A DNA stretch of 64,000 nucleotides, taken from contig DDUN01000038.1 in the NCBI GenBank assembly GCA_002344825.1, positions 21,061 to 85,060 on the forward strand, in the 5' to 3' direction. Both the position numbers and the translations under genes were made by a program. Position 1 is the first letter of the stretch; every line of letters begins with the position of its first letter. Positions 6,517-63,338 of this stretch are shown here, in pieces. The stretch comes from Candidatus Multiplicimicrobium inquinatum (GTDB lineage Bacteria; Omnitrophota; Omnitrophia; Omnitrophales; Aquincolibacteriaceae). Under the pieces are notes generated by a model, which worked only from the letters and a program-made list of their open reading frames with translations, ran no database searches and had not been told where the DNA came from.

Positions 6517-6520
6517 CTGA

Positions 6521-8962
<2,442 letters not shown>

Positions 8963-33953: not shown

Positions 33954-34397
33954 CTAAAAGGTTGAAACCATAGGCTTGGAGCCACTAGGTTCTTTTTTTC
34001 CGCGCAGTGTAAGAATGCTGGCTCCAAGCATTCTGCATAAGCTGCTATTTTCTTGTAGCAAGCTTTCCATGCAGGCCGGATCTACTTTCTTAGAATCTCT
34101 CAATAAGCATAGCCAGTATTCGCTTTCGTTGGCAGATTTTAATGCATACGAAAAAAAATTAGCAAAATCTCGTTTTGAGCTACTTCCTTTTGCCTCAATA
34201 ATATTTGCACCAATTGAAGTTGCTGACCGCAATAATTGCTTTGCAATGATCTGAGCGGCAAAATCTTTTTGTAAAATTTCTAAAAAGCGAATGATTCTAA
34301 TCGAAAAAGTATAGCTTTTTTCCTGTAATAAGGTTTTGGCTTTTGGGCCATGGCTTTGACCTTTAGCCTTTAAGTTTTGGGCTGATTGTGCTTCCAT
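33954..34397 (-). CDS. Four-helix-bundle protein (TIGR02436 / 23S rRNA intervening-sequence protein family).
   Basis: The core …IRFLEILQKDFAAQIIAKQLLRSATSIGANIIEAKGSSSKRDFANFFSYALKSANESEYWLCLL… is the hallmark of this family. The annotated ATG overlaps the upstream gene by 28 nt, so the true start may be internal. Confidence 0.75.
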   Translation of the reverse strand: MEAQSAQNLKAKGQSHGPKAKTLLQEKSYTFSIRIIRFLEILQKDFAAQIIAKQLLRSATSIGANIIEAKGSSSKRDFANFFSYALKSANESEYWLCLLRDSKKVDPACMESLLQENSSLCRMLGASILTLRGKKEPSGSKPMVSTF

Positions 34398-36201: not shown

Positions 36202-39200
36202 TTGATGGGACGGCATCAGCAGTTCTTAAAATTTGTGGCCACAGCTGTCATCATGTGTCTTTTGGCGCAGGATGCGGCGGTGGCATTGCCATCGCAGACT
36301 ACAGACTACAGACCACAGACCACAGACTCTGCGGAAACTCCCGGAGTTGAGGGATCGCATCTCCGGGAGTTGGGCTGGTTAAGCACAAAAAACCTTGGAA
36401 CGATTGATGAAGAGTTCCAAGGCACGAACGGTAAAAGCATTACCTTCATTCTCGATGCCCACGACTCTCTCGACGCGCAAAAGAATATTGTCCGAATTAT
36501 TCAACGGGCAACAGCCTCAGGCCGGGTTCGAACCGTCTTCGAAGAAGGTTATGAGGACGAGCTCAATACGGATGAATGGTTTGGCGATATCCAAGATGAT
36601 CAAATTCGCCGCAAAGTTGCTTACTATTATTTGGATCAACTTAAAATTGGCGCAGCAGAGTTTGCGCATATTAATCGGCAGAGCCGATTAGGACAAAGAA
36701 CAAAGGACAAAAAACAAAGCACCGATTGGCAATTAGTCGGCGCGGACGACAAACAAGCTTATCTTGAAAACGTGCGCGCTTTCGGTGACTCTGAAAAAGT
36801 CCGCGCGAAAATCCTGCGTGACACGCAAGCCATTCAGCGCGAACTGAAAGCTGTAGGCGCTAAGCAGCTTACGCCCGAAGCTCAAAAGTGGATTGCCGAT
36901 TATCAGCGCTTCCATGAGCATGCGCTTCCTCTGCTTGATTATTTAAATCGCTGGCTTAAATTTATTCCCCAAGAAGCTTGCCCGCTTTTACGCCGTATTT
37001 TGTCCGCCGCGCAAGATTTAGAACTTGCGCGCAGTATTCAACGGATCCGCGCCGCAGAAGTTTTAATTGAAATCAAACAATTCGAATCCTCACTGGAAGC
37101 GCATTTTTTTGAAGAAAGACAAACCGCCGAGATTTGGCAAGCACAGAAAACCATGGGTTCCGTTGAAAAATTGACTAATCTTAAAATTTCAAGTCATGAG
37201 CTGGATGAGCTTAAGCAGAATTTGAAAATGTGGGATACGGAAAGCCTTGCGCCCTTGCTTGCTCGCGCGAAGAAAAATCCTGTCGTGCTTTCCAAACGCT
37301 GGGAAACACTCATTCAAGACGCGCTGAAATTTTATGAGCTTGCGCATAAAAGAGATATGGCGGTGGAGAGAGCTCTTTTAAGTTGGAACAACTCCTCGGC
37401 TCCGCTCAGGGCAAGCGAACAAGAGCCAAAGGACAAAGAAGCGGTTTTGGTGTTCGGCGGTTTTCACCGCGAGGGAATTACCGAAATTTTGCGGCGCAAC
37501 GGATTTTCTTATACGGTTGTCATTCCTAAAATCACCGATTTTTCCAAGCGTCACCAATTGCTTTATCGCGAAGCTATGAGCGTTGGACCACGGGGCTCGG
37601 GCCACGGAGCCCGCCAAATGGTTCAAGCCGCGCGTCCGCTTTCAGGTTTTTATGATCACGGCTTTCGTTATGAAATTCCGCTTGTGGCGGCTCTCGCAAA
37701 AGAAAATCCAAAGCTAGATCAAAGAAGCTTTGCCTTGCTTGTCGAAAGAACACTTTTAGAAAAAAGTTCAACAACCGTGGCGCGTGGAGTTAATGGCGAG
37801 AATCTGAGCCGTCCCTCGGCTTCTCCCAACACGCGCCGCCTTTTGTTTTCAGCTCGCTCCGAATCTCGAAAAAAAGCAGAGAAGGTTCTCGATTATGAAG
37901 AAATTGATTTTGGGACTAAAAATCGTTTTTTAAAGAAAGCTTTGTCCACCTACTTAACTCCCAAGGTGTTTGAAACGGGCGGATTCATTTATAAATGGTT
38001 CGGGATCCAATATTTCATTTTTTTACTTAATCAATTTGACCGTCAAAAAATTCTACCGCGGTTACCCGTAAGCCTTTCCACCCCGCTTACGGATTCAAAG
38101 CCCGAAGAAGAAATTTCTGTCTCGGGACGAATCAAAATGGGATCTGCTTTAGAGATTATGCATCTCGCGGCATTTTTTATCATATTGGCTTTAGCCTCTA
38201 TGGAGCATTTAAGTGCAGATAATTTTGGAGCCACGTTATTGCATTTGGGAAATGTAATTGCAAATGTGTACCCCATTTTTGTTCAACGCTATGTTCGGGC
38301 AAGACTATGGCCTCGATATATTCAGATAAAAGAAAATGAAACCAACCGTTCCGAAGCCCGCGCGGGAACAGCCAAGAAGGAAACGGTGATTCGGAGCCCC
38401 GAAGTGCTGCGCCTTGCTTTGGGAAAATTCAATATTTTAAATTCCGGCGCACTGCATGAGTTGTTTTCTTCTCAACAAACAAGCCTGCAAAAGCTTACAA
38501 AAGCTGAGCGGGACCTTTTAAGGCGTATAGCGCTAATAAGAGACTCAACGAAAAAAGTTATGCGTAAAGAGAAGGGTGAGAATGAATTTCATGGGCCCTT
38601 TGCTCCTGCAAACGTGAGCCAGGTGATGACGGTTTTGAAGCATCTTGGAGCAAAACAGGGCGAAAAAATAATGGATCTGGGTCACGGCGAAGGGAGCGTG
38701 CTTTTTGGTGCGGCGGCGCTGTTTGGTCTTCAGGGTCTTGGCGGGGAGCTGAATTCCTATCTTTACAGGAAAAGTGCCGCGATTCAAGCGGAGCTGGTTG
38801 ATGCCGGGATTTTAGACGCGGGCGCCGTCGAGCTTAGAAAAGAAAACTTTAATCAGCTTGATCTTCGAACTGCTGATTATGTTTTCTTTTTTTCATTCGG
38901 AGGAAAAGTTGATCAGGAGAAGCTCTTGCGAGAGTTAAAGCCCGGCGCCAAATTCATTCTTTTGGGACTTAAAAACACCAATTGGGAGCAGGAGGAATTA
39001 ACCGGCTACTCTGATTTTTCAAAATTATTGGAAAACGGGCAGTTTGAACTTGTGCGATTTCCGGAACTGAGAACTTGGGTTTTCACAAAGCGGTCCGCGC
39101 GTTCCGAAATGCGCGAAGCAACTCGCGCGCAGATTTTGGAAATTTTAAGGAATTTCGAGCAGTTTCGTGAAAATATAAAAGTCAGCGAGCCTGTTGTGTG

Positions 39201-42200
39201 GGATTTAGAGGGGGTTGAATTAAACCGCGCACGGCCGCTGTTGGTGCTTCCTGATATTCATGGCGACCTGGAAGGCATGCTCGCCATGCTTTATTTCAGC
39301 GGCGTGATTGACCGCGAGGGCTTACCGACGGGCAGCGCGGATGTGATTCAGCTGGGAGATGTTATTAACGGGCGCGAGCAATGGTTTGAAGCGGATGATT
39401 ACCTGCGTTTTTTACAGCAAGAATTTGAGGAACGGGGACTTAGTCTGATTCGCCTGGCGGGCAACCACGACGTAAAAGTTTTGAAAGCCTTTGATCGCAA
39501 GAAATATTTTTTGGAATGGGTTTATGGCCCGTCCGAACGGCAGTTAAGCGGGTTGCGGGAATTTTTTCAGCAGTATTTATGGAAAAACCCGGGCAAACAA
39601 GGCCGGCAACTATTAAGAAAAAAGTTTACTTCCGTCGGTCTGCCGCTTCATATTTATTTTATTTTGGAAAAAGCGCGGGATTTTTATCAGGCAGTTAAAA
39701 ACGATATTCAAACCGGAAAAATCAAAGCGGCGGCAAGATTCGGCAATCTTTTTGTCACACATGCCGGATTGTCCCCGGCCGCGATGGAAGAGGAGTCCCT
39801 CGGTGCGGATTTTGATGAGAAAGCGGACGTTCTCAATCGGGCTTTTCAAGCATGGCTTTTAAAAGAAAGCAAGCCAAAGCAAGATGAGAGAACTGCAGAC
39901 GACGAAACAGTCGATGAACGCATCAAAATCATTCTGAAAAAAGCTCTCGGAATGAAAACAGCCGAAGGATTTAAAAAATCAAGCGTTTGGCAATTGACAG
40001 GGCATCGTCCTAAACGGCATAAACGCGTGAGCTCTGATGAGCGAATGATTTCCGCCGACTTTGATTTAGCGCGCCGCTTTGAAGTCTCCGAAGACGATCC
40101 TGTTTATCCGCGCATTTTATTTTTGAAGGAAAACCAGTTAATCGAGCAGGAAATTAAATTACCGCGCTTTGAAAGTCCGCCTTCGCCTGCAGATGACGGG
40201 GAAACATTGAAAGAAGAGTTTGTTGCCCGTTTTTCAACCGAAGAATTAAAAGAGTTTGAAATAAAGCCTGTCTCCCGAATTCGACTGATTAATTTGATTC
40301 AGGCCGCGATTAGCCAAAGCGGTGTATTAGAAAGCGCGTCCATCCAAAACGACTCCGTTTTTGTGAGAGTCATTGAGACAGCCGCCCACGGGGAAAGCAG
40401 CATTACGTTGCCCGCGCAAAATTATCATATTGGGGGGTATCATTCGACACTGGCAGAAGCTTATTTACAGCAAAACTATTTGGCGGGCGATGAGTTTTTG
40501 AACACGGTGCACGCGATTGAAGTTTGGCGCCGCTCCGAGGCGCGTTATTTGGAAGCGGAAAAAATTTACTTTGACAGCCCTGAATTTTTGAGCGCTACGC
40601 ATTATTTTAATGAAGCCGTCATTGTGCGAGACGAAGCCGGGACCATTCAGCCTATGGACTGGAACAAACTCATCACAATTTATGAAAGACTGCGGGGCGA
40701 TGATGTCAATGCCGAGTATACAGATGAAGATCGGCAGCTGAGGCTTTCGCATGAAAATGAGCCGTGGGCTCGGGAATGGCTTCAAAATATAAACCGGCAG
40801 GATTTAACTGGCGACGAAGCGCTTAATTTAGGAGTGAAAATCTACCGCGATAGCAGCGAAGGCGATGGCAGAAATCAGATGTTTGTAAAAAAAGCGGGCT
40901 TTGACCGGGTTCGCCCCCCCAAAAAAGCAGGAGCTTATTTTGAGCGGCACCCTGCCGATGGGCACCATGGTTTGGCTTGGTTTTTAATGAATTTTTTCTT
41001 GATGCGCAATGGATACGCTCCTTTTTATTTTAAGAATGAGAAAGAGTATTTGAAAATTCCGATCGACTATTACAACCGTGATGAAGGCGCGGCTCGTTTG
41101 CGTCAGCTTCTCCGCGAAAGAGTTTTTTCAGAAAACAAAGGCAACCGTTCCGAAGCGCGGACAAGCGATGAAATCGGGCTCCAACAAATTAAAAATACGG
41201 AAATTGCTTTGACGCCGCGCGCGTTTCACGGCCGAAATTGGCTTCGCTATCCGTGGATGACCACAAGAAAAAAAGTTTGGGAAGTTTTCGGGCTGCCCGA
41301 CCCGCGCGATGCAAAACCGGCGCAGCAAAAAACATCGCGCGACATCACCTTTATTAAACGCAAAAGTGACCGTCATCCGGTTTGGGTGATTTTAGAAAAA
41401 GACAAAGTCCGCTTCGAAGAAAAATTTGCAAGAGAATTACTTATGCTGCGCGGCAAAGCCCGTTCCGAATCTCGAAACGACCCCAAAAAACAGGCGGCGG
41501 AGTTTTCAAAAAAAGCGAATGCCATTATCAAAGCACGGGGCAATTTAGAAGAAGCCGCGCGGCTGGCGGAAGAAGCCATCGAACTTGATTATACAAATGC
41601 ATTTGCGCATGTGGCGCTTATTCAGGCGCGGCGGGGGCTGGGTCAGTATAAAGACGCGCTTGAAGCATTTATCTCAGCAGAGCGGGATATTCCCGATAAC
41701 CAATACGTGCGCGCAATGTTTCCGGGTATTTTAAATTCTTTCGCGGCTCAATCAGCGGAGCAAAATCGGCTTGATGATGCCATAGACACTTTCCGAAAAA
41801 TTTTTCCGGATACGCCGGAAGAACTTCAAGAAAGCGTTAAGTTAACGGCTATGCGGGCGCGTGAAGCCTTAGCGTATCAAGCCATTGAAAGAGGCGATTT
41901 TGGAAAAGCGCTTCAAATAGCCGAGCAAATCAATCAGATTTTACCTAGCAATCAAACAACAGATCTTATTTTAGCGACAGCATTTATTCATCAAGGCCAG
42001 CCCGGGCGCGCAGAAGCACAGCTTGATTTCTCGCGCAGAAAATTTTTAGCGCGGAATCCCCGAAGTTATTTAATTAAAGCTTTGAGCGCGGCACATAAAC
42101 TTCGGCCGAATGAAGCGAAGGCAATATTAAATGAAGCTCAAGACGTATTTTCAGCTGAGAAAAGCATTGTGGGGGTGATTCAAAAGCACTCGAAGCTGAT

Positions 42201-45200
42201 TGAAGCCGGCGCGGATGTTGGCGAATTACTTAATCAAGTAAATCGAGATCCCGTGCTTGCTGCGCGCGAAGAAAGAATTATTGCCGGAGTTTCTCGCTCC
42301 GAATCGCGCCGGCGCTCTCAAGATGAGGGAGAAAAAATTTTAAAACTCCATACGCTTTATATGGATGTGATGCGCAGAAAAGCAAATGCGTGGAAAGATG
42401 GAGCTGAAAAAGTAGAAAGCGCGGGTTTTTTAGTTACGGACGTTGGCTATTATCCGATTGATACGGACAACGAATTCGAACACTTGCTGGCGATTTTCCC
42501 CAAAATTCGTGATAAGACAAATTTTAATCAACCCCTTCGCTTTCTTGATTTAGGATCAGGCGCCGGCAAGCTTTTGATACAAGTGCTAATGCTGGACGCC
42601 CATCTTAATGGAGTTGGCATCGAATATGATCAGGCGCTTTATGAAGTTTCTTTAGACCTCGCTGAAGAAGCCGCAAAACAAAAACTTATTTCTCGTGAGC
42701 GCGCGCATTTTTTAAAAGGGGACTTTTCTGTCCCTGAATTTGAAAAAGAAATTTCTTCCGCGGACGTTCTTTTTCATTATCAGGCAAGCTCATTTGACCC
42801 CGCGCTGCTTGAACAAGCATTGATTCGCTCGATGCGCCCAGGAGCCAAGCTTTTAGTATACGGGTCATCTCGTGATTATTTCCCAAAACTATCGGCGCGC
42901 GCTGGTTTTGAACGGGCGTTTGATGAGACAGCGCGAGTGACAACTTATAAAAGAAATTTCATGCCGCGCGAGCCCATCTCTTATCAAGATACAGCCGTTG
43001 TTTTTGTGCATACCGCGGGCATGGGGGATCACTCACTGCCTTTGGCGCTGGATAACCGGCGTGTGATTAAAGATGCCGTGAAAGCCATGCAAAATTTAGG
43101 CGGCAAAGAACTTGAATTTTATATTGACGGTCATCCGAGCTATTTGCCGCCGCGACCCGATCGCATTCGTTCCCGACAAGAAAACACAGCCGCGCTGACT
43201 TCGCCCTTTAGCTACGATTTTGATCCTGTCCGCAATCTGCGAAGATTTGTTATGGCTGGGGGAGAGTGTGAAGCTTGTTTTCAAGCCGCGCTCACTTCGC
43301 TATTGGAAGAAAGCAGCGGGCAAGCAGCACCGAAAGAAATCCATTTAGCCGCGGATGCTGTGTACCAAGTTGTTCCGGTCCCAGATGAAGATGATCTTCG
43401 CGGAGTGCTCCATGAATCAAAAGCTGTTTCCAGCGAGCAGGTTTTTGACATGGCAGCCAAAACGTTGGCTCGAAACAGATTTACTTCGATCGGCAAAATT
43501 TCTCGAGCTGAAAACTTTTTGACCCAAGGCACATTCTCAGAAAGCTCCCAGGTTGTTGTTTGGGACAATTATCGTGAAATGATTGATTGGATTCGTGCCG
43601 ATCAAAAGAGATCTGAGGCGAGAGCCAATTTCAAAGCTGTTTGGAAAAGTGCGACAACCGCGGATGGCCAAATGCGGATGGCTTTGGGCTTGTTGCGCCG
43701 TGTCGAGCAATCACGAAAAACGCGCGGCTTAGATCTTCCGGACAAGCTAACTGAAATTTTAAAAAATGCGGATGAAATCGGCGTCGGACCGCATGCGCAG
43801 CTGAACAATACCATTGCTCTTTTGCGTATTTTAGGAATTCACGTCGCTTTTAAATTGATCCCCGGCCTTGGAACGGTAGGCGCGGCGGGATTGGGGATGA
43901 TGGCGCTGAGTGGGCCTTGGTTTTTTGCGGGCCTTTCTCTTTTTATGCTGCAGGGTTTTTTGCGCGCGGCAACCACCGCGTGGTTCTTAACGGGAACGCA
44001 ATTGCCCGCAAAAACAGGGCTGGCTTTTCTATCGGCAATTCCGGCGCTCGGAATTTTGGCGGTTCCGGTTTATATGCTTGCTTTAAAAGATCAGCGCGGG
44101 CTGGGTTTCGCTATTTTAGATTACTTTTGGAATTCCGCTTGGGACAAACTTCTTTTTCCATCATTGATGGCTTTAGGAGCGGGACTTTTTTGGGTATTGC
44201 GTTGGGGAGTGAATCTGGGAGTCTTTGCTTTAATAACAGCGGCTTCTGTTATTTTTTTTACTGGGTCAAAATACATGGAATGGCGTGATCAGGGACGGAC
44301 TGTCTTGCAAAAAACAGTTGAAGCTGTTTCGGTGATAGGCGCGCTTGCCGGCTTTGGGGCAACGATCTTCTATTTTGGATTTTTCAGTCTGGCGACACTT
44401 TTTGTTTTTACCGCAATGGCTGTTCTTTTTAAGGGACTGCAAATATTTTTTGATTTTCGAGAGCGGCTTTTCCGTAAATCTTTGAGAGAGCCCGGCTCGC
44501 CCGCAGCGGCTGAGAAAAAAGAGGGCGATTTTAAAAACCGCTCAGAAGAGCGAAGCGCATTAGAGATTTTTGATGAAGCGGCGGACAATTTATTAGCTTA
44601 TCCAAAAGCGCTTCTTCATTCACGCGGCTTAGAGCCCTATCTGGATGCGTTCGACCGCGAGCATTATGCCTGGGATGAAACGCATCAGCATTGGGCGTCG
44701 AAAGACTTTCATCCGACGATTACGGGCGCGAAGCGGCTTATTTTAGGGTCTTGGGAAGATATTCGGCGCGCCTCGCCTGGTGAACACGCGCGCATGAAAA
44801 ATTTTGTCGCCATTCGTTTAAACACAACAGAAGGAGCGCGCAGTTTTTATGCTTTTGATGACCACGGCTGGTCGCTTCAGGCTTATGCCGAGGCGCATTG
44901 GCGCGGAGAAATTCCGGCGCTCGGCAACACACAGATATTTATAGACAAGCACGGTGATGATCGAAAAGTACGTGACGGGCAATATTACGCGGAAAGGTTT
45001 ACCGCGATACTCCGTCAGGATGCCGGAACGAACAATAATATCGAATTTGATATGGGCGGTTTTAATAACACGCTTTGGTCTTCGGGGTTTATTCCGAAAG
45101 AAAATCATCATCGATATCATGCCCGCATGAGCTGGCTCAAGGAAATGATGATCGGTTTTCCAAACAATCGGGCTGTTTTGCTGAATGTCGATACGGACGT

Positions 45201-48200
45201 GACAGAGTTTATCGTGGGTGATTGGGGGAACGAAATGCCGCTTGGTTTGGGAGAAGAGGATTTTGAGTCGCTTGCCGTTGATTTAACCAATTTACGCGAT
45301 CAATACGGCTTGACTCCGCTTACGGCGCATTTCACCACAACGCATTTTGAAAATGAAAATTTGGCAGATTTTTCTTTGCATTCAAACCGCATTCAATACG
45401 GCGACACCGAGCTTGCGCGTTTTCTTGCCCGCATCGCTCCGTTTATTTATTTTGTGAAAGATCAGCCCGTCGAATTGCGCGATCAGGCGATTGCGCAAGC
45501 GGCGCAAGAACATGCCGCGCAATGGAAGCAGGATTTTGGCGCTAAATTTAACCGTTCCGAAATGCGGGCGGAAATCATTTTTCCCGATGCGCAAAAAGTG
45601 AAAGATGTTTTTGAGAAAGCGGAGGGATCCGCGGTGCTTTCAGAGGAAGACCTTGAAACTGCTGTTCAACAAGCTGTGGCGGAAAGCCGTGCGTGGCTTG
45701 CCGACCGTGTTAAACAAGAAACGCCCGAAAGCGAAAGACGGGCCATCGCGCTTCAGGCCGCTGAAGAAAAAATTGACGAAAGAACTTTGTATTTAGAGCC
45801 CGAGCATTGCGGTCAGCAATGCGGTTTTTCTTCGGGGGATGTCAGAGACAGACTGTATTCTCTTTTGGGGGCGAAGGTCAAAATTCGGCGTATTCAGGCT
45901 AAAGATGGCTTTGGTGTTGCGCAAAGCCAAAAACACCTTCTAACACTTATATCGTTGCCGGACAAATCCAAAATTTTCCTTATAGATTTAACTTTCGCGC
46001 AGTTTATGGATCGAAAGAACAGCCCCTCTCCTTACATTGGGATGCAATTAAAAAGCAATGCGCCCGATCAGCTGAATACGCTTTTACGCCGCGGCTATGT
46101 CGATTTAACCGAGAACAAAGACTTTTTAACGCAATACGCTCAATCTTTTCTATCTGAGGCGGAGGATGATGACGCGCATTATCCTTTAGAGCATTTTCCC
46201 GCTGAGTATATTGCTGATCACACCGATTTGATTTCACAGCCCATGAGTGATTTTATAAATATTCCGGCAACCGCCGAAGAGAATTTCAAAAAATCTTTGG
46301 AAGAGCGCGGAACAAAATTTCTCATTTTAGCAAAAGAGCGGCGTGAAAGAATTTGGAGGGGATTTTTAAGCTTTTACCGGAATAGCGCAGGGCAGCAAAG
46401 CAATTTAAAAACAGAGGATGGCCGGTTTTTTGAATTTAGCGCGCGCTCCGAAATGCGGAATGATGAAGTGGGCAACCCTTTTTTCGTAATGGTTCACGGG
46501 GAATCGCGATATTGGCAAAAATTAGAAAGCGAGGGTTATTTTTCAGAAGAAGACAGGTCTTTGATCTTTGACGCCGTGGATGGATTAATTCGTCCCGATG
46601 CTTCAATTTTAGATTTAATGTCAGGCAGAAAAATTAGCTTTTCAAAAAAGCAGCGAAATATCACCGCCCTTGGATTGACGGAAGCTATTCTGCGCCAAAA
46701 TAAAATCGACGGAAAGATCGATAATTTTGATGTGCAGGACCTAAACCGTAACTCTCAACTACCTTACGCTGATAAAGCATTTGATAGCGTGGTGATTTCT
46801 TTTGGCATCATGTATCTGACGCAGCCGGCGGAGGTTTTGAAGGAAGTGCGCCGTATTTTGAAGCCGGGGGGCAACTTGATCGTGATTTACGCCGAAGATT
46901 CCTGGGCAAGTTCTTCCGCGGTTGCTTTATGGAACCAACCAGGATTATTCCGCTATCGGGGAAGCCGTATTTATGGGCCGCCGTTTCTTTCGGATGATCA
47001 CCAGGAATTCAGTCAATTTTATGGCCAAAGCGATGTTTTAAACTTTTATCTGCGCGGCGCAGGCTTTGAAATTACGGAGCGAAAAAGAGTTTTTGGAAAA
47101 AAAGACACGCGGGTTGTTGGTTCTGAAATGTTTGCTGAGATGGAAACGCAGAATATTTACCAAATTGTTTCTTCCGGCTCGTCCGCGCGATCTGAAGCGC
47201 GGCTGGATGAGTTGCTGGATAAAAACCGCCGCAATGCGGATGAATGGAAAGAAACGATTCGTCTTATTAAAGCCACTTTGCCCTTGGCCGAGGAAGTGAC
47301 CCCTAGGATGATTGTTGAAGCACCGGCGGCAAAAGGAAAATTGCGTTATCAGACTTTAGTTATGGCGGTTCATCAAACCGGAGGAGATTATGCGAGCTTT
47401 GGACTTGATGCGGAGGAAAAAAACTCAATTTCTGAAAAAGAAACCAAAATCAAAGCGGCAGCTCGAGCTCTTCTAGCCGAAAAGAAAAGCCCAAGTCCTG
47501 AGGCCGTTTTGAGTTATCTTCAAAAACCAGCACATTTCTTTAAAGGGTTAGATGAAGGCGCGCTAAAAAAGTTAGGGCTTGTTTTTCCTGAAAAGAAAAA
47601 GACGGCGGATGAAAAATACATGCCTATTTTAGAAGCGCTTGTCCAAGCAGGAGAAAAATTCGAAACGGTTCGTGAGATTGCTATCGCGGCCGCAGGCGTT
47701 CCTGAGAGCTACGTGAAAGAGCTTGGCGCACCTAAGCTTACTGCTATGGGACTTCTCACAGGGGGAACAAACCCATATGAAAAACTTTCGCAAAGATTTC
47801 GAGTTGCTCGCCAAGCTAAAATTAATGCAGCGCAGGCTAGAAAAACCCCCGTACGAACAATTGCCGAGCTGTCTGAAAGCACAGGTATTCCAGCCACAAC
47901 TTTAGCGAAATATACCGCGCAGCAGTTAGAAGAGCTTGGTTACATTCCGCGCCCCGTCAAGCTTGAGCGCGCGGTAAAAGCTTTGCTAGTTGAAAATCCC
48001 GGGCAAATTATTTCTTATGAAGTATTGGCTCAGAAAATAACTGAAATGGGCCTTGAAGATCTGAAGCCAGAGCAGCTGCGCGAATGGAATGCTTATCAAA
48101 AGCCGCCTTTTACCGCACAGCCCGGCTGGAGGAAGCGTTTCGAGCCGATCATGAAAGCCGTTGAAGTACTTGGAACGAATGATAGCGAATTAGACTTATT

Positions 48201-51200
48201 TTTTAAGAACTCACTTGGCGTCCAAACCGTCTGGATTTGGCAGATTGAATACTTTGTGGCTAAAGCGGCGGATATTTTAAAACAAAACCCTTATTTTCGA
48301 AGTAGATGGAATGAACAAACAGGAAAAGATTTTACCGCCGCGGTGATGCGCGCGCATACGGTTACAGAACCGGAAAAAGCCGAGCTACAACAGATATCCG
48401 CTAAAGACGCGGCTTTAAAATGGCTTGTTGCCACCGGCGGCGCAGAAACACTTAAACCGGCTGGGCCCGTTTCTACGATTCAAATTTCTTTGGAAGGCTT
48501 TTCCGAAAACGGTCAAACCTTGTATGAAAAGTATGAGTATGAAAAAACAAACGGCCTGAGTGCTGAGATGCTTGTTGAGCAGCTTGGTTTTTCGGATCAG
48601 CCCGGAGCAAAAAGAAGGCTGACGGATATTAAACAGGTTTTAATTGATGGCATTGATCAAGGCCGGTCTTGGCATAAAATCGGTTTGTCTTCCCGGACGA
48701 GCGCCTTAGTTATTAGGCATAAAAACTATCAAAGGCCGCAAGCCTCTCTTGCCGAAAGCAAAACAAGCTTGAATGTCGAAAAAACCTCTGTTCCGAGAAG
48801 GGAATTAAAAACAAAACCATCTCCGTCTCGTGCTACGGGTCGCCGCGATGCCCGATATTGGACCATTGCCATGCTTTCTGCCGCTCAGCGTCTTGAGGCC
48901 GATAAATTCTTTGACGTGGCTGAGAAAGCGATTCAAGCAATGAGGCAAGAAGGCGTTCGCAAAGATTATCTAACAAGTTTTACGCGTGTTTTTGATAAGC
49001 ACGCTCGGCAAATGGATCTGCTTAGTCAGGAACCCGAAGATCGAGAAGCTTATCAGCGGTATCAGTTGATTTTAAAGTTAATAGGAGAGCTTCAAGCTTC
49101 TGCGCGCTCCGAAACCCGTTCGGTTCCCGCGGAACAATATTTTATTGTTGGGGATATTACCCGCGCGGATTTGATATGGTCGGAATCCGCGATGGGCTTA
49201 CCTGAAAGCGATGATCCTGAAAAATCAAAGCGCCTTTTAGCCATTCGTGATGCATGGAATTATTTGCGGCCGATTCAGCGTGAAATCATTCGGCAAAGAC
49301 ATGGAATGAGCCAACACAAATCGACGGATTGGAAAAGTATCGCAAATCGGATAAATCGACACAAGGTTGGCATTATTCAGCTTCACACACGCACACTTGA
49401 ACAACTTCAAAGCTTAGAAAATGGCGCAATGGCATTGTTTCAAGACACAGGTATTCCGTCCAAACATCTTCAAGAAGCTTTTAATTTGTTTTCAGGCAAG
49501 CCGCTTCATCAGTTAATTTTAAAATTAGAATACGGCTTGGATGGTATTCCGCGAGAAGAAGATGACACAGCCATCGCCAAGATTTTAAAAGAAAAAGTAA
49601 GCGCTGAACTCGATCGTGGGCAAGTCGCTGACCTCAGAAAACATCTGCTGAAGCAACTGAAAGTCTTGGCGGTAGAAAAGGGATGGACCGATCTTGAAAT
49701 CATGCAAAAAAGAAAACGAAAGAAAGCTGCGCCAAAGTGGACAGAAGCTGAGCTTGAAAAATTTATGCGCGAAAGATCCGATGAAGGACTTGCGGCCAGA
49801 GGCGGAGTTATTGATGGTGGTTTTGAGTATGTATATAACTTAATGAGAGCTAGGCATGGAACATGGGAAGCCGCCCTTCGATTTTACGGAAGAAATCCCG
49901 AAGCAATCCGTTTGCGCTCCGCCTTGCCAAACCGGCTGGATGAAGCTGCCGCCTTACAAGCAGCGGCAATCTCTTCGGTGAAAGCACAGCCAGCGACAGC
50001 TCTGGAAACGCCTGTCGTTGCGCCCGCCATAGAAACAATAATTTTAATGGAAGAAGAATATTTTTATATTCAAGATCTTATTTCTCGCGGAATAACTTTG
50101 GCAGAAATGGTGCGCAGATCCGACGGGCATCATCTTCGCCCGATTTTTGCAGCGATTATGGGAATCATCAAAGTCACTGCGCCGATTTTTGAAAAATATT
50201 CAAATTTTGAAAATCGAGAAACCGCGCTCAAAGTTTTCAATGACCTCAAAGAAATTGAACTTCGAATTCAAAAATTGCCGTCGATTCCGGAACCGGATTT
50301 GCCGAGGCATCGCCCAGTCTCTGCCGTGCCCGCTACGGCGCCTCAACCCGTTGTTTCGCCGGTACCGCTTTCGTCCCATGACAAATTAGCGCAAGATTTT
50401 CAGAATGGTTTGCGTACTATCCTGAATGCCTTGGAGAGCTTTCAAAGCCGCTCAATTCATAATCAGGAAGGATTTGACCGCTTTAAAGGAGAGCTTGCCG
50501 GTTTCCGCGACCGTTTCGACAAAATTAAAAAAGCACTTGAAGAAGAACCGGGTTTAGCAAGCCGCTACGCGCAGATTCAAACGCAGTTGCGGCTTTTTGA
50601 AAATGCTTTGCGCGAACCCGAAGCCAAATTAAAAACAGCCAAGACTCGTTTTGAGGGCGGTGCAGTTGCTCGCAAATCGGCGCTATCTGTGCCGCCATTG
50701 AATCGGCCTCGGCCTTCAGTTTCGAATGTTGCGGCCGCTGAGAGAAAGCATGGGCACGGACACTATGCGCGGGCAAAGCGTTTAGAAAAAAACGAAAAGC
50801 CGGCACAGACAAATGATTGGCGCACAGCATTAATTAAAACCGGAAAAACGAAAGAGGCGCTGGAAGAAGATTTACTTAATTTGGAAGAGCTCTTGTCTCA
50901 AGAGCCTCAGGATATTTCCGCGACGGAGAAGCCCCGCATTGTCCGACTGGCAGAAACCCAACAAGCATGGCTTCGTATTTTAGCGGCGCTTTTTCTGCCT
51001 TCAGAAAAGCCGCGCGCGGAGCTAAGCAAGGCTGCCAAAGAATTTGAGCTGCTTTTTAATCAGGATGCGCAGATTACGCGCGACAAACACCGCATGTTAA
51101 TGGCGGACCCGCGTTATCAGGCTTATGATGCCGCAGTGTCGCGTCTCAACGATGCTTCAAAAACAAGACTTGTTCCCGCAGGCAAATCGGTAAACGGCGC

Positions 51201-52665
51201 GGATCTTTTTACGTTAAGCATGGCAGAGATCATTGCCACCTCATTTTGGGATAAGCATGATCGTGATATTGCGCGCTCCGAAATGCGGGACCCTCAAAAA
51301 GCGGCCGAAGATATTTTTAATAATTTCTTTCTGGATCCTGTTTCACGGAAAAAACTTGTAACCACGCACCTAACCATTCGTACGATCGGGGAAGATCGCG
51401 GCCTCGACCCAGAAGATGTCGGGTTGTGGCTTTTGGAGTGGGATTTTGCGCGAGCCCTTGTTTTACAGCAGCTTGTCAGCAACCTGAATGGAATTCAAAA
51501 AACATCTCCCGAAAGACTTGAAAGCGCGCTTGATTTGGATTTGGCTTATTCGCAAGTCATGGAGCTTGCGGGAGGGCCTCAATATCGGCAAATTTTGAAT
51601 TTTTTCCACGACAGCGAAGAGCTTCCGATCGACTTTGGAAGGAAAGTCGATGAGGCTATTTCCGGAGTTAAAGCGGACGTCGCAGAAGTGCATGCTTCGC
51701 AGGGTTCTCAGGAGTTAATTTGGCGGCTTCGGAATGATGCGAATGACTACAAGCGGTACCTGGATTACATTACGGGCATTGTGGAGAAGGAGAATTTTTG
51801 GAAATTTGACCTTGAGCTTGAGAGGTTAGAGTGGCAGCAAAGCGTGTTTTTTCGGTCAGAGGCACGGTATCAGCAGATTTTGAACTCAGCGCTCAAACGA
51901 GTAAGTCCGGATCAAGCGGCTGAATCGTTGATGGAAATCGAATTCGAATTGTCGGTCCAGGAAGAAGAAAAATTGGACTCGGAATTAAAAGAGCTCGCGA
52001 TTTATTTTGCTGAACAAGGTGATTTAGAAAAAGCCGCCGTGATGTTTTGGCTGATTAAAGATGACAGCGTTGCGGCAAGTCTTACGCAAGAAACAAAAGG
52101 CCTTGAAAATCTTGGAAGACAGCGGGAGGCGCTTATCTCGTCCAATGCCCAGCACTTAATGCTTAGCGCAAATCGAACGGCAAGCGTTGAGCGGTCAGCG
52201 TTGAACGGTCCGAAGGCACGAATTTTAATCAGCCGCGAAGAGCTTGTCAAAATGTCAGAAGAAAACTTTTTGGCTTTTTACAAATTTTTCTATCAAAACC
52301 AAGAGTTGGAGCTGTCCGTCTACAGCTCCGGCTCAAAAAATCCAGAAGAGGAAACGCGTGTCGGCTTGCTTGAGGCCGTCCCCTCGGCAAAAACCGGCCG
52401 CGTTTCTTTCTTCCTGGACCTGTCTTCCGCGGCGCAAGGCGGGGAAGCGATTGAGTTTTCTTCTGTGCCGGGGACAAAAACAGTGCGTGGTAAAAAGATC
52501 GCCGCAGCGGATATTCGCACAGTCGAAGGCATGGCATCCGGATTTTTAGCCGCCATGGGTATGGAATATACCGAAGAGAAAGGCTTTGTCCGCGTGACGA
52601 ACGGGGTCGAAATCAGCCGCTTTTTTGAATTCTTGTCTTGGCAAGTCTTTGCGGCCTCGGCGTAA
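36202..52665 (+). CDS. Giant multidomain protein, 5487 aa (16.46-kb single ORF). It has a signal peptide, a Tiki/TraB-like N-domain, two DOT1-like methyltransferase folds, a PPP-type phosphatase, a Fic-like motif, TPRs, an internal TM bundle and a class I methyltransferase. It is punctuated by R-S-E-x-R motifs.
   Basis: One uninterrupted reading frame with an AAGGA RBS. The signal peptide is MMGRHQQFLKFVATAVIMCLLAQDAAVA. Motifs are read directly from the translation; see the findings for each. There are no stops in 16.4 kb, and codon usage is like the neighbouring genes. Confidence 0.75.
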   Translation: MMGRHQQFLKFVATAVIMCLLAQDAAVALPSQTTDYRPQTTDSAETPGVEGSHLRELGWLSTKNLGTIDEEFQGTNGKSITFILDAHDSLDAQKNIVRIIQRATASGRVRTVFEEGYEDELNTDEWFGDIQDDQIRRKVAYYYLDQLKIGAAEFAHINRQSRLGQRTKDKKQSTDWQLVGADDKQAYLENVRAFGDSEKVRAKILRDTQAIQRELKAVGAKQLTPEAQKWIADYQRFHEHALPLLDYLNRWLKFIPQEACPLLRRILSAAQDLELARSIQRIRAAEVLIEIKQFESSLEAHFFEERQTAEIWQAQKTMGSVEKLTNLKISSHELDELKQNLKMWDTESLAPLLARAKKNPVVLSKRWETLIQDALKFYELAHKRDMAVERALLSWNNSSAPLRASEQEPKDKEAVLVFGGFHREGITEILRRNGFSYTVVIPKITDFSKRHQLLYREAMSVGPRGSGHGARQMVQAARPLSGFYDHGFRYEIPLVAALAKENPKLDQRSFALLVERTLLEKSSTTVARGVNGENLSRPSASPNTRRLLFSARSESRKKAEKVLDYEEIDFGTKNRFLKKALSTYLTPKVFETGGFIYKWFGIQYFIFLLNQFDRQKILPRLPVSLSTPLTDSKPEEEISVSGRIKMGSALEIMHLAAFFIILALASMEHLSADNFGATLLHLGNVIANVYPIFVQRYVRARLWPRYIQIKENETNRSEARAGTAKKETVIRSPEVLRLALGKFNILNSGALHELFSSQQTSLQKLTKAERDLLRRIALIRDSTKKVMRKEKGENEFHGPFAPANVSQVMTVLKHLGAKQGEKIMDLGHGEGSVLFGAAALFGLQGLGGELNSYLYRKSAAIQAELVDAGILDAGAVELRKENFNQLDLRTADYVFFFSFGGKVDQEKLLRELKPGAKFILLGLKNTNWEQEELTGYSDFSKLLENGQFELVRFPELRTWVFTKRSARSEMREATRAQILEILRNFEQFRENIKVSEPVVWDLEGVELNRARPLLVLPDIHGDLEGMLAMLYFSGVIDREGLPTGSADVIQLGDVINGREQWFEADDYLRFLQQEFEERGLSLIRLAGNHDVKVLKAFDRKKYFLEWVYGPSERQLSGLREFFQQYLWKNPGKQGRQLLRKKFTSVGLPLHIYFILEKARDFYQAVKNDIQTGKIKAAARFGNLFVTHAGLSPAAMEEESLGADFDEKADVLNRAFQAWLLKESKPKQDERTADDETVDERIKIILKKALGMKTAEGFKKSSVWQLTGHRPKRHKRVSSDERMISADFDLARRFEVSEDDPVYPRILFLKENQLIEQEIKLPRFESPPSPADDGETLKEEFVARFSTEELKEFEIKPVSRIRLINLIQAAISQSGVLESASIQNDSVFVRVIETAAHGESSITLPAQNYHIGGYHSTLAEAYLQQNYLAGDEFLNTVHAIEVWRRSEARYLEAEKIYFDSPEFLSATHYFNEAVIVRDEAGTIQPMDWNKLITIYERLRGDDVNAEYTDEDRQLRLSHENEPWAREWLQNINRQDLTGDEALNLGVKIYRDSSEGDGRNQMFVKKAGFDRVRPPKKAGAYFERHPADGHHGLAWFLMNFFLMRNGYAPFYFKNEKEYLKIPIDYYNRDEGAARLRQLLRERVFSENKGNRSEARTSDEIGLQQIKNTEIALTPRAFHGRNWLRYPWMTTRKKVWEVFGLPDPRDAKPAQQKTSRDITFIKRKSDRHPVWVILEKDKVRFEEKFARELLMLRGKARSESRNDPKKQAAEFSKKANAIIKARGNLEEAARLAEEAIELDYTNAFAHVALIQARRGLGQYKDALEAFISAERDIPDNQYVRAMFPGILNSFAAQSAEQNRLDDAIDTFRKIFPDTPEELQESVKLTAMRAREALAYQAIERGDFGKALQIAEQINQILPSNQTTDLILATAFIHQGQPGRAEAQLDFSRRKFLARNPRSYLIKALSAAHKLRPNEAKAILNEAQDVFSAEKSIVGVIQKHSKLIEAGADVGELLNQVNRDPVLAAREERIIAGVSRSESRRRSQDEGEKILKLHTLYMDVMRRKANAWKDGAEKVESAGFLVTDVGYYPIDTDNEFEHLLAIFPKIRDKTNFNQPLRFLDLGSGAGKLLIQVLMLDAHLNGVGIEYDQALYEVSLDLAEEAAKQKLISRERAHFLKGDFSVPEFEKEISSADVLFHYQASSFDPALLEQALIRSMRPGAKLLVYGSSRDYFPKLSARAGFERAFDETARVTTYKRNFMPREPISYQDTAVVFVHTAGMGDHSLPLALDNRRVIKDAVKAMQNLGGKELEFYIDGHPSYLPPRPDRIRSRQENTAALTSPFSYDFDPVRNLRRFVMAGGECEACFQAALTSLLEESSGQAAPKEIHLAADAVYQVVPVPDEDDLRGVLHESKAVSSEQVFDMAAKTLARNRFTSIGKISRAENFLTQGTFSESSQVVVWDNYREMIDWIRADQKRSEARANFKAVWKSATTADGQMRMALGLLRRVEQSRKTRGLDLPDKLTEILKNADEIGVGPHAQLNNTIALLRILGIHVAFKLIPGLGTVGAAGLGMMALSGPWFFAGLSLFMLQGFLRAATTAWFLTGTQLPAKTGLAFLSAIPALGILAVPVYMLALKDQRGLGFAILDYFWNSAWDKLLFPSLMALGAGLFWVLRWGVNLGVFALITAASVIFFTGSKYMEWRDQGRTVLQKTVEAVSVIGALAGFGATIFYFGFFSLATLFVFTAMAVLFKGLQIFFDFRERLFRKSLREPGSPAAAEKKEGDFKNRSEERSALEIFDEAADNLLAYPKALLHSRGLEPYLDAFDREHYAWDETHQHWASKDFHPTITGAKRLILGSWEDIRRASPGEHARMKNFVAIRLNTTEGARSFYAFDDHGWSLQAYAEAHWRGEIPALGNTQIFIDKHGDDRKVRDGQYYAERFTAILRQDAGTNNNIEFDMGGFNNTLWSSGFIPKENHHRYHARMSWLKEMMIGFPNNRAVLLNVDTDVTEFIVGDWGNEMPLGLGEEDFESLAVDLTNLRDQYGLTPLTAHFTTTHFENENLADFSLHSNRIQYGDTELARFLARIAPFIYFVKDQPVELRDQAIAQAAQEHAAQWKQDFGAKFNRSEMRAEIIFPDAQKVKDVFEKAEGSAVLSEEDLETAVQQAVAESRAWLADRVKQETPESERRAIALQAAEEKIDERTLYLEPEHCGQQCGFSSGDVRDRLYSLLGAKVKIRRIQAKDGFGVAQSQKHLLTLISLPDKSKIFLIDLTFAQFMDRKNSPSPYIGMQLKSNAPDQLNTLLRRGYVDLTENKDFLTQYAQSFLSEAEDDDAHYPLEHFPAEYIADHTDLISQPMSDFINIPATAEENFKKSLEERGTKFLILAKERRERIWRGFLSFYRNSAGQQSNLKTEDGRFFEFSARSEMRNDEVGNPFFVMVHGESRYWQKLESEGYFSEEDRSLIFDAVDGLIRPDASILDLMSGRKISFSKKQRNITALGLTEAILRQNKIDGKIDNFDVQDLNRNSQLPYADKAFDSVVISFGIMYLTQPAEVLKEVRRILKPGGNLIVIYAEDSWASSSAVALWNQPGLFRYRGSRIYGPPFLSDDHQEFSQFYGQSDVLNFYLRGAGFEITERKRVFGKKDTRVVGSEMFAEMETQNIYQIVSSGSSARSEARLDELLDKNRRNADEWKETIRLIKATLPLAEEVTPRMIVEAPAAKGKLRYQTLVMAVHQTGGDYASFGLDAEEKNSISEKETKIKAAARALLAEKKSPSPEAVLSYLQKPAHFFKGLDEGALKKLGLVFPEKKKTADEKYMPILEALVQAGEKFETVREIAIAAAGVPESYVKELGAPKLTAMGLLTGGTNPYEKLSQRFRVARQAKINAAQARKTPVRTIAELSESTGIPATTLAKYTAQQLEELGYIPRPVKLERAVKALLVENPGQIISYEVLAQKITEMGLEDLKPEQLREWNAYQKPPFTAQPGWRKRFEPIMKAVEVLGTNDSELDLFFKNSLGVQTVWIWQIEYFVAKAADILKQNPYFRSRWNEQTGKDFTAAVMRAHTVTEPEKAELQQISAKDAALKWLVATGGAETLKPAGPVSTIQISLEGFSENGQTLYEKYEYEKTNGLSAEMLVEQLGFSDQPGAKRRLTDIKQVLIDGIDQGRSWHKIGLSSRTSALVIRHKNYQRPQASLAESKTSLNVEKTSVPRRELKTKPSPSRATGRRDARYWTIAMLSAAQRLEADKFFDVAEKAIQAMRQEGVRKDYLTSFTRVFDKHARQMDLLSQEPEDREAYQRYQLILKLIGELQASARSETRSVPAEQYFIVGDITRADLIWSESAMGLPESDDPEKSKRLLAIRDAWNYLRPIQREIIRQRHGMSQHKSTDWKSIANRINRHKVGIIQLHTRTLEQLQSLENGAMALFQDTGIPSKHLQEAFNLFSGKPLHQLILKLEYGLDGIPREEDDTAIAKILKEKVSAELDRGQVADLRKHLLKQLKVLAVEKGWTDLEIMQKRKRKKAAPKWTEAELEKFMRERSDEGLAARGGVIDGGFEYVYNLMRARHGTWEAALRFYGRNPEAIRLRSALPNRLDEAAALQAAAISSVKAQPATALETPVVAPAIETIILMEEEYFYIQDLISRGITLAEMVRRSDGHHLRPIFAAIMGIIKVTAPIFEKYSNFENRETALKVFNDLKEIELRIQKLPSIPEPDLPRHRPVSAVPATAPQPVVSPVPLSSHDKLAQDFQNGLRTILNALESFQSRSIHNQEGFDRFKGELAGFRDRFDKIKKALEEEPGLASRYAQIQTQLRLFENALREPEAKLKTAKTRFEGGAVARKSALSVPPLNRPRPSVSNVAAAERKHGHGHYARAKRLEKNEKPAQTNDWRTALIKTGKTKEALEEDLLNLEELLSQEPQDISATEKPRIVRLAETQQAWLRILAALFLPSEKPRAELSKAAKEFELLFNQDAQITRDKHRMLMADPRYQAYDAAVSRLNDASKTRLVPAGKSVNGADLFTLSMAEIIATSFWDKHDRDIARSEMRDPQKAAEDIFNNFFLDPVSRKKLVTTHLTIRTIGEDRGLDPEDVGLWLLEWDFARALVLQQLVSNLNGIQKTSPERLESALDLDLAYSQVMELAGGPQYRQILNFFHDSEELPIDFGRKVDEAISGVKADVAEVHASQGSQELIWRLRNDANDYKRYLDYITGIVEKENFWKFDLELERLEWQQSVFFRSEARYQQILNSALKRVSPDQAAESLMEIEFELSVQEEEKLDSELKELAIYFAEQGDLEKAAVMFWLIKDDSVAASLTQETKGLENLGRQREALISSNAQHLMLSANRTASVERSALNGPKARILISREELVKMSEENFLAFYKFFYQNQELELSVYSSGSKNPEEETRVGLLEAVPSAKTGRVSFFLDLSSAAQGGEAIEFSSVPGTKTVRGKKIAAADIRTVEGMASGFLAAMGMEYTEEKGFVRVTNGVEISRFFEFLSWQVFAASA

Positions 52666-62846: not shown

Positions 62847-63338
62847 TTGATGACGATGGCGACAAGGTCGGGAAGTAAGGGGTTTACGCTTGTTGAAATT
62901 ATCATTGTTCTCGCTGTTTTAGGATTGCTTGTGACTATTGCCTTGCCTGCGCTTTTGCGCAATCGCGTGATCGCGAATGAATCCGCTGCCAAAGCGAATT
63001 TGCAAACTTTTGCCGGAGCAATGGAATCGTACCGAGCCGCTCAACCGACTCCGGCCTATCCCAATGATATGAGTGATTTGACCGCCGCCACGCCGCCTTA
63101 TCTTGATACGACCTGGGGCGCGGGAACAACTCTTACGAAGAGCGGGTATAATTTGACTTATGTGCGAACCGGAGACGCGATTTACGCCTTAATTGCCGAG
63201 CCCAGTGAAGTTGCCGTTACCGGCAACAACTCTTTTTGCGTGGATGAATCCGCGCTTATTTGGACCTCAGAAACCTCGGCCGGTGCTTTTACGAGCTCTC
63301 CCTGTTCCGGCGGCACCGGCGCGGTAACTATTTCCTAA
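62847..63338 (+). CDS. Prepilin-type N-terminal cleavage/methylation domain protein (type IV pilin or T2SS pseudopilin).
   Basis: The class III signal is GSKGFTLVEIIIVLAVLGLLVTIALP (G-F-T-L-V-E). A C-terminal Cys pair is present (…FCVDES…SPCSGG). Confidence 0.8.
   Translation: MMTMATRSGSKGFTLVEIIIVLAVLGLLVTIALPALLRNRVIANESAAKANLQTFAGAMESYRAAQPTPAYPNDMSDLTAATPPYLDTTWGAGTTLTKSGYNLTYVRTGDAIYALIAEPSEVAVTGNNSFCVDESALIWTSETSAGAFTSSPCSGGTGAVTIS

Follow-up and report, generated by a model that had tools for sequence, protein, structure and literature searches.

A TIKI/Ere/ChaN-like head domain and recurrent R-[SA]-E-x-R junctions in two giant Omnitrophota proteins: a candidate polyprotein-processing enzyme and its putative sites

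The "archaeovorin-type" giant proteins of the bacterial phylum Omnitrophota have an N-terminal signal peptide and few membrane segments, and they are encoded by long multi-enzyme open reading frames (ORFs) that include methyltransferase and TPR domains (10.1101/2023.11.21.568195; 10.64898/2026.06.07.730766). The papers on these giants raise their possible cleavage into smaller proteins, state that the cleavage points are unknown, and describe N-terminal regions without identifiable domains except for C39 or S8 peptidases (10.1101/2023.11.21.568195; 10.64898/2026.06.07.730766); whether each giant functions as one chain or gives rise to many proteins by cleavage is thus presented there as an open question. 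Here, we analyze a 64,000-nucleotide stretch of Omnitrophota chromosome (contig DDUN01000038.1, positions 21,061 to 85,060; hereafter, the window), which carries two long plus-strand ORFs with the same general characteristics, giant 1 and giant 2, with ychF between them. Both begin with a probable Sec-type leader followed by a divergent domain of approximately 410-450 residues, the head, and continue with cassettes that start at the short motif R-[SA]-E-x-R. We regard the head as a predicted, catalytically competent member of the TIKI/Ere/ChaN fold superfamily, and as the first concrete candidate for an enzyme that cuts Omnitrophota giants. A search by terms in the two giant-protein papers (10.1101/2023.11.21.568195; 10.64898/2026.06.07.730766) found neither a TIKI/TraB-like head nor a junction motif.

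The superfamily, which also includes TraB, PrgY, GumN and RRSP, has been characterized experimentally in several members. In EreC, mutagenesis and structural analyses defined a catalytic set formed by E47, H50, E78, R261 and H289, with 28 residues from H50 to E78 and another 28 from R261 to H289 (PMC7979712). The reported residues are H85 and E113 in Bcr135, and E3900-x-H3902, E3930 and H4030, the "2His/2Glu" motif, in RRSP (PMC6254334). RRSP and TIKI1/2 are site-specific endopeptidases (PMC6254334). TIKI is metal-dependent, whereas the Ere enzymes and RRSP are metal-independent (PMC6254334, PMC7979712); the initial annotation, which had likened the N-terminal domains of both giants to a metal-dependent TIKI/TraB/GumN protease superfamily, therefore extended to the whole superfamily a trait that only part of it possesses.

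The conservation of the head was evaluated by aligning 160 sequences, which otherwise share approximately 20-35% identity. Numbering residues from the first codon of each listed ORF, we found that D85, H87, Q93, E115 and G180 of giant 1 are present in 160/160 sequences, and G116 in approximately 99%. Position 182 is always acidic (D in 136 sequences and E in 24), while R384 and H422 are invariant in all the sequences that are ungapped at these positions (158/158 and 156/156, respectively). The spacing between the first His and the Glu is 28 residues in 159 of the 160 heads. The spacing between the Arg and the second His has a modal value of 28 (88/156, giant 2 included), which a loop insertion lengthens to 38 in giant 1. 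The two His residues are separated by 335 residues in giant 1 and by 379 in giant 2. Based on this order and spacing, D85-A-H87 of giant 1 is equivalent to E47..H50 of EreC and to E3900-x-H3902 of RRSP; E115 is equivalent to E78 of EreC, E113 of Bcr135 and E3930 of RRSP; and H422 is equivalent to H289 of EreC and H4030 of RRSP. We propose that R384 corresponds to R261 of EreC. The divergent head of locus L083 reads E-A-H at the first motif, which is the RRSP form. The motifs quoted in the initial annotation are all present in the translations of both giants at the places it gave, and the first His, the Glu and the GxxH that it singled out coincide with catalytic residues defined experimentally in EreC and RRSP, where exactly 28 residues likewise separate His and Glu (PMC7979712; PMC6254334).

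The predicted structures point in the same direction. AlphaFold models of the giant 1 head (residues 60-463; predicted local distance difference test, pLDDT, 86.8; predicted template modeling score, pTM, 0.79) and of P0013, a stand-alone head of 332 residues (pLDDT 82.9; pTM 0.79), both display a parallel-stranded alpha/beta core interrupted by an all-helical insertion, whose length is approximately 215 residues in giant 1, 85 in P0013 and 260 in giant 2. In the giant 1 model, the first core strand comprises residues 79-85 and ends at D85, and a strand at residues 413-419 leads to the G-G-F-H motif and is followed by a helix; S436-Y-T-V lies after G-G-F-H. Each conserved residue follows a core strand, except R384, which is located in the helix that precedes the G-G-F-H strand. 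A Foldseek search against the PDB returned Bcr135 and EreC as the two best matches, both non-significant. In a structure comparison against 48,164 chains, of which approximately 10 belong to the superfamily, the giant 1 and P0013 models, which are approximately 20% identical in sequence, recovered the same superfamily set; for P0013, eight of these chains were among the top nine. The ranking places ChaN first (9.9), followed by EreC (9.4), Bcr136 (9.1), HopBA1 (8.9), Bcr135 (8.7), a TraB-family protein (7.7) and RRSP (7.4), with PMT C1-C2 in ninth place (6.9). In these models, the head has an alpha/beta core that superposes on those of superfamily members, together with both His motifs, the Glu and the Arg. 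We consider it very likely that it adopts a TIKI-type fold with an intact active site, and we rate it as catalytically competent because its conserved residues and their spacings match those of the reference enzymes.

In comparison with the described systems, the head shows both clear likenesses and differences. EreA, EreB, EreC and Bcr135/Bcr136 (PDB 6xcq, 2qgm/3b55 and 2rad) share its order and spacing of acid, His, Glu (+28), Arg and His (+28) (PMC7979712), and Ere enzymes also carry a helical lobe between the core halves, although the insert of the head is larger (85-260 residues). Nevertheless, identity to Ere is only 7-13%, with no PF05139 match; the first acid of the head is an Asp two residues before the His (D-x-H), whereas Ere reads E-x-x-H; and Ere enzymes are stand-alone cytoplasmic macrolide esterases, whereas the head follows a leader at the N-terminus of proteins several thousand residues long. 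ChaN, a haem-binding lipoprotein of Campylobacter (PDB 2g5g, PF04187), is extracytoplasmic and has a leader, like the head, but it is known as a haem binder and not as an enzyme, while the head has no PF04187 match and keeps an invariant catalytic-type set. The TraB/PrgY/GumN/TIKI1-2 group (PF01963) presents the same motif order, as in GSIH..VEAD..RN..GALH of E. coli YbaP, and PrgY and TIKI, both of peptidase type, are tethered to the membrane outside the cytoplasm and target specific peptides or proteins. However, the head has neither a PF01963 match nor an hhalign signal against the YbaP family; the spacings of YbaP, counted by hand, are different (26 residues from His to Glu and 24 from Arg to His); and PF01963 proteins are stand-alone proteins of 250-500 residues, whereas the heads front long proteins. 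RRSP (DUF5) of the MARTX toxins (PDB 5w6l) has the acid-x-His, Glu (+28) and His of the head (PMC6254334), and it is a proven site-specific endopeptidase inside a giant, multi-module secreted protein. In contrast to the head, which is always first and universal in its family, RRSP is an internal effector cassette that cuts host Ras and is not the processor of the toxin.

None of the sequence-based searches recovered this relationship. Both heads and ten relatives were scanned against a 2025 copy of Pfam at E<=10 with no PF01963, PF04187 or PF05139 match; only scattered sub-threshold noise was obtained (ApbE, Cob_adeno_trans, and DUF5682 at E=0.14). No NCBIfam model matches the head, and the matches of hidden Markov model (HMM) profiles of the family among all PDB sequences were limited to coiled-coil noise that stems from the helical insert. 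Using hhalign, the head family was aligned to the E. coli YbaP family with a probability of 0.1% in both global and local modes, the YbaP alignment being shallow (number of effective sequences, Neff, 2.3) and limited to its closest 120 hits. YbaP itself, a bona fide TraB/GumN protein, has no PDB relative by sequence; therefore, such silence is usual in the TIKI superfamily. The superfamily assignment made in the initial annotation is thus supported by the predicted structure and by residue order and spacing, but not by sequence-profile comparisons with Pfam and the PDB. Since no family HMM or profile detects the head, it constitutes a new family and not a member of PF01963, PF04187 or PF05139.

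The heads of both giants are true paralogues, as judged from their sequences. In a direct BLASTP comparison, they match only around G-G-F-H (E=1e-6). However, an HMM built from 154 G1-type heads, with giant 1, giant 2 and all G2-type sequences left out, matches giant 2 at E=4.7e-28 over residues 5-214 and 417-492, which are the two halves of the domain, and it matches none of the other ORFs of the window. The paralogy of the two N-terminal domains that the initial annotation had read from their motifs is thereby confirmed. Additionally, BLASTP with the giant 2 head matches many G1-type heads, e.g., P0041 (E=5e-20 over residues 7-479). The initial annotation had located the giant 1 domain at 36202-37560; the region is correct, but the domain extends slightly further, to approximately residue 470 (nucleotide 37611). 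At 36652-36678 (residues 151-159), giant 1 contains the motif G-A-E-Y-A-H-I-N-R, which is 89-98% conserved among G1-type heads. Giant 2 and its relatives lack it and present S-G-A-T-L-A-A-L instead, which indicates that two head subfamilies coexist within one genome. In both giants, the sequence preceding the head fits a Sec-type signal peptide or signal anchor with an A-x-A-like end, and a hydrophobic segment before the head is found in 95 of the 121 family members with a complete N-terminus.

A word-indexed search returned 13 relatives of the head, whereas scanning 1.84 billion cluster representatives (50% identity) exhaustively with a profile yielded 9,884 clusters at E<=1e-3, of which 6,730 also pass E<=1e-30. 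The best 150 cluster matches are mostly proteins of 1,000-6,700 residues, in which the head is matched at residues ~5-550. In all 158 proteins examined, the head is present once, always at the N-terminus and never internally. A genome scan with the G1-type head alignment, considering one genome per species, identified 152 head loci, often with several copies per genome; the named organisms among them are all Omnitrophota, except for one metagenome-assembled genome labeled Planctomycetales. We rate the head as a previously undescribed domain: the superfamily is known, but this family is new, very large and used in a new architectural role. P0013, which was retrieved by the search for relatives of giant 2, has no junction motif, and a trypsin-PDZ (HtrA-like) gene follows it. 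P0012 is a head protein of 740 residues with three junction motifs in its tail, and its gene is arranged head-to-head with that of a 5,754-residue giant, whose own head reads E-A-H and not D-A-H (P0013 and P0012 regions: L082:1057-3025 and L083:1-10223).

Beyond the head, the bodies of the 158 head proteins are characterized by a short recurrent peptide. RSE.R is their most enriched gapped 5-mer, with 594 occurrences against 9.1 expected (65-fold), and RAE.R is the second (12-fold). Giant 1 contains 15 RSExR motifs and giant 2 contains four, against 0.15 and 0.05 expected from shuffled sequences, respectively, while the other ORFs of the window have none in 13,305 residues. The density of RSExR per 1,000 residues is 1.66 in the family and 0.107 in the ORFs upstream of 80 related loci. 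At least one RSExR was found in 109 of the 115 proteins longer than 1,500 residues; of the other six, five have R-x-E-x-R variants in its place, for the most part RAExR or RTExR. The first junction of giant 1, R552-S-E-S-R556, is located approximately 130 residues past the second His, and approximately 90% of the 160 family members have a motif at this aligned position. A literature search for "RSExR" returned nothing relevant.

The motif coincides with the borders of exchangeable modules. After the head, giant 1 has 15 cassettes and giant 2 has four, each of which starts at R-[SA]-E-x-R. The cassettes of giant 1 are 105-723 residues long, the size of ordinary proteins. Giant 1 and P0090 (5,052 residues) have six cassettes in common, with 31-85% identity and in a different order; in giant 1, these are residues 2032-2470, 2470-2780, 2780-3118, 3118-3415, 5025-5218 and 5218 to the end (window 42295-45567 and 51274-52665). 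In five of the six alignments, the first residue is precisely the motif Arg in at least one of the proteins, and in four of these it is so in both. When 388 body alignments of the whole family were compared with random positions, 10% started exactly on a motif (0.5% at random), 37% started within 10 residues of one (2.8% at random) and 62% within 25 residues (8% at random). The giants consist of autonomous modules separated by a recurrent short site, and a single N-terminal domain of hydrolase type with an intact catalytic-type residue set, which may be a peptidase or an esterase, is part of the chain in 158/158 proteins. As separate observations, the giant 1 cassette at residues 1444-1649 occurs as a tandem duplicate in P0129, and the first cassette (residues ~584-702, window 37930-38340) matches the Pfam family CrtO (glycosyl-diaponeurosporenoate acyltransferase, a small membrane protein; E=3.5e-9) and contains approximately three hydrophobic helices. 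Among 120 relatives, only 40 have any membrane segment in the 450 residues that follow the head. The Pfam matches in the giant 1 body are limited to this CrtO-like membrane domain, TPR and two S-adenosylmethionine (SAM) methyltransferase domains, and giant 2 has no Pfam domain at E<=0.01.

Based on these observations, we propose, as the most parsimonious interpretation, that the head would be a cis-encoded endopeptidase that binds R-[SA]-E-x-R junctions in the extended chain and cuts the giant into separate proteins. The invariant D85, H87, E115, R384 and H422 of giant 1 (D73, H75, E103, R426 and H454 of giant 2) would activate water for hydrolysis. As in EreC, the catalytic-type residues are predicted to lie where the parallel strands of the core reach their C-terminal ends, and the His, Glu, Arg and His side chains would share one water-binding pocket, judging from these strand-end positions. 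If the motif adopted a beta-strand, its R, E and R side chains would point to the same face, as expected for an extended protease substrate, and cutting might take place while the chain emerges at the membrane beside the tethered head. The MARTX toxins, with their cysteine protease autoprocessing, and the viral polyproteins with a cis-acting protease also combine modules, protease and recurrent sites in one chain and would be functional analogues, MARTX being the nearest. However, the MARTX cysteine protease domain is caspase-like and the viral 3C/NS3 proteases are chymotrypsin-like, so that the fold of the head is different; MARTX is cut at loosely defined Leu sites, whereas the giants carry a strict R-[SA]-E-x-R at each junction, where we propose cleavage; and the TIKI-fold domain that MARTX does have, RRSP, is cargo and not the processing enzyme.

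Under this proposal, the junctions are probably processing sites. That the head is the enzyme acting on them is a more tentative assignment, which we hold as quite possible because the head is the sole universal, single-copy and N-terminally fixed element while the other cassettes shuffle, because no conserved neighboring gene offers another protease (only local synteny among close orthologues was found), and because the superfamily includes site-specific endopeptidases, i.e., TIKI and RRSP. We infer hydrolase activity, peptidase rather than esterase chemistry, cleavage at the junctions and the role of the head as the cutter, and we consider self-processing of the giants, which the initial annotation had suggested, plausible and better grounded now that the motif is seen across the family and on cassette borders. 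Several considerations weigh against this reading. No sequence-profile method ties the head to any family of the TIKI superfamily, the models were built on alignments of only 15 sequences, and the five residues are expected to lie close together only on the basis of their strand-end positions. A TIKI fold does not imply a peptidase, as the superfamily holds esterases (Ere) and non-enzymes (ChaN and PMT C1-C2), and the structures closest to our models include esterases and a haem-binding protein. The leader predicts an extracytoplasmic head, which is in tension with the presence of several SAM methyltransferase cassettes, normally cytoplasmic. Additionally, giant 1 has membrane segments after the first junction, at residues ~590-700 and 2538-2743, which may place later junctions across the membrane from the head. 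Finally, P0013 demonstrates that a head can exist without a polyprotein.

Some of these points would also be expected if the head is an active TIKI/Ere-fold hydrolase, esterase or peptidase, on another substrate, such as an envelope component of prey or host, a lipid or a signaling peptide, with the junctions cut by another protease or left uncut, for example as docking or capping strands of the cassettes. The esterases EreC and Bcr135/136 and ChaN are among its closest structures besides peptidases; the leader would put it outside the cytoplasm, where TIKI, PrgY and ChaN also act; a predatory or parasitic lifestyle has been proposed for Omnitrophota (10.1101/2023.11.21.568195); and the stand-alone P0013 adjoins an HtrA-like protease gene. 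We nevertheless find this explanation less likely, since it does not account for a single, always-first head (158/158) amid shuffled cassettes, nor for a motif that is tied to head proteins and 15-60 times rarer elsewhere, and no other conserved protease gene is found nearby. The head might instead be non-catalytic, serving as a membrane-proximal anchor, an export chaperone or a ligand binder, in the way of ChaN, which binds haem, or PMT C1-C2. Loss of activity has precedents in several superfamily members, such as PMT (PMC6254334), but PMT lacks the 2His/2Glu motif (PMC6254334) that the head family keeps, and the invariance of all five Ere/RRSP-equivalent residues over 160 divergent sequences makes a non-catalytic head unlikely.

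Two further explanations dispense with one of the elements of the proposal. If the TIKI likeness were a coincidence, arising from a generic three-layer alpha/beta sandwich with short His/Glu motifs or from an AlphaFold artifact on a shallow alignment, the head would have an unrelated fold; the failure of every sequence-based comparison, the non-significant Foldseek result and the 15-sequence alignments would be expected in that case. It is very unlikely given that two independent models recover the same small superfamily set, that the 28/28 spacings are exactly those of EreC, and that a bona fide member such as YbaP is also without PDB relatives by sequence. Alternatively, RSExR could be the protein-level shadow of a cassette-joining signal in the DNA, i.e., a recombination scar that is no protease site and for which the head is irrelevant. 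The shuffling of cassettes with breakpoints exactly at the motif is consistent with such a scar, as is the Ser codon, which is TCN in 19/19 motifs of the window (TCC 13, TCT 4, TCA 2) although AGC and AGT make up approximately a third of the Ser codons in the two giants. However, the Arg codons (CGC, CGT, CGA, CGG, AGA and AGG), the third base of Ser, the Glu codons (GAA/GAG) and the whole x codon vary freely; homologous recombination would need more than the approximately nine fixed bases; and the change from Ser to Ala (TCN to GCN) at position 2 is tolerated across the family, most proteins mixing both residues, whereas changes of R, E and R are not. The free synonymous variation indicates that the conserved unit is the peptide, and on this basis a nucleotide-level origin of the motif was rejected; we consider a scar highly improbable. 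The exclusive use of TCN fits old, strongly constrained serines together with the tolerated TCN-to-GCN Ala variant.

If the head does process the junctions, the giants would amount to an "operon in one ORF" that brings along both the enzyme and the site code for its processing. In its broadest form, the proposal is that Omnitrophota possess a new class of bacterial polyproteins, comprising thousands of genes with 5-20+ unrelated enzymes per chain, organized in R-[SA]-E-x-R cassettes that move freely between genes and that a TIKI-fold first-domain maturation peptidase releases; we put this forward as a possibility, with more reserve than the assignment of the head as the junction-cutting enzyme. 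The analysis supplies a candidate enzyme with five named residues and a candidate site code, R-[SA]-E-x-R, and RSExR offers a computational way to split the giants into cassettes for structure prediction and annotation. In turn, the TIKI/Ere/ChaN superfamily would gain a very large branch (~9,900 clusters at 50% identity), invisible to Pfam and NCBIfam, with its fold in a new architectural position.

Table 1. Window coordinates of the two giant ORFs, their leaders, heads, putative active-site motifs and RSExR junctions
Feature	Coordinates	Strand	Description
Giant 1 ORF	36202..52665	+	ORF list; 5487 codons from TTG 36202
Giant 1 leader (putative)	36205..36291	+	Charged n-region (R, K), hydrophobic core aa 11-29, AVA; hydropathy 2.04
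Giant 1 head (predicted TIKI/Ere/ChaN-like alpha/beta fold)	36379..37611	+	aa 60-470
Giant 1 D85-A-H87	36454..36462	+	Followed by D-S; directly after first core strand
Giant 1 E115-G116	36544..36549	+	In F-E114-E115-G-Y-E; end of second core strand
Giant 1 G180-A-D182	36739..36747	+	After third core strand
Giant 1 all-helical insertion	36751..37395	+	aa ~184-398, splitting the core halves; helices at model residues 125-339
Giant 1 R384	37351..37353	+	In helix F377-Y-E-L-A-H-K-R384-D (family F-Y-x-x-A-x-x-R-D)
Giant 1 G419-G-F-H422	37456..37467	+	V-F-G-G-F-H; second GxxH
Giant 1 first junction	37855..37869	+	Motif scan
Giant 1, fourteen further RSExR	38347..51867	+	First bases 38347, 39100, 40531, 41146, 41461, 42295, 43609, 44539, 45553, 46444, 47188, 49105, 51274, 51853
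Giant 2 ORF	54110..61930	+	ORF list; 2606 aa
Giant 2 leader (putative)	54110..54190	+	K/R n-region, hydrophobic aa 5-23, AQA
Giant 2 head (paralogue, divergent subfamily)	54251..55594	+	aa 48-495
Giant 2 D73-A-H75	54326..54334	+	Alignment columns 396-398
Giant 2 E103	54416..54418	+	V-E103-G; 28 residues after H75 (spacing analysis)
Giant 2 G154-V-E156	54569..54577	+	Family alignment
Giant 2 R426	55385..55387	+	F419-Y..R426-E; 28 residues before H454 (spacing analysis)
Giant 2 G451-G-F-H454	55460..55471	+	Then S468-Y-S-V (translation, family alignment)
Giant 2, four RSExR	56081..61309	+	First bases 56081, 57086, 61028, 61295

As shown in Table 1, the listed giant 1 ORF opens with TTG. Along its entire length, giant 1 shows 99.4% identity to P0067, a database protein of 5486 residues, which begins at the Met encoded by ATG 36205; because of this near-identical protein, the true start of giant 1 is probably ATG 36205 and not TTG 36202. 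The window corresponds to chromosomal DNA near the replication origin: yidC (minus strand), dnaA, dnaN, gyrB and gyrA occupy positions 1154-11513, within the first 11.5 kb, and are followed by housekeeping genes, which places the beginning of the window in the chromosomal origin region. The distance from dnaA to the two giants is approximately 32-58 kb, and both are encoded on the strand whose GC skew is positive.

Other ORFs of the window were also noted. A 554-residue ORF without Pfam match (34370-36034, minus strand) is oriented divergently from giant 1; it occupies the same position in six related loci (L002-L005, L026 and L045; 33-76% identity) and is not found at other head-bearing genes. 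Two plus-strand ORFs of 714 and 757 residues (16503-18647 and 19231-21504) have no Pfam match, and the stretch that contains them shows an AT skew of 0.22-0.31, compared with values of at most 0.13 elsewhere in the window. Just 3′ of giant 2, at 62847-63338, a small ORF carries a prepilin-type N-terminal methylation motif (PF07963); pilin-like genes near Omnitrophota giants are mentioned in the giant-gene preprint.

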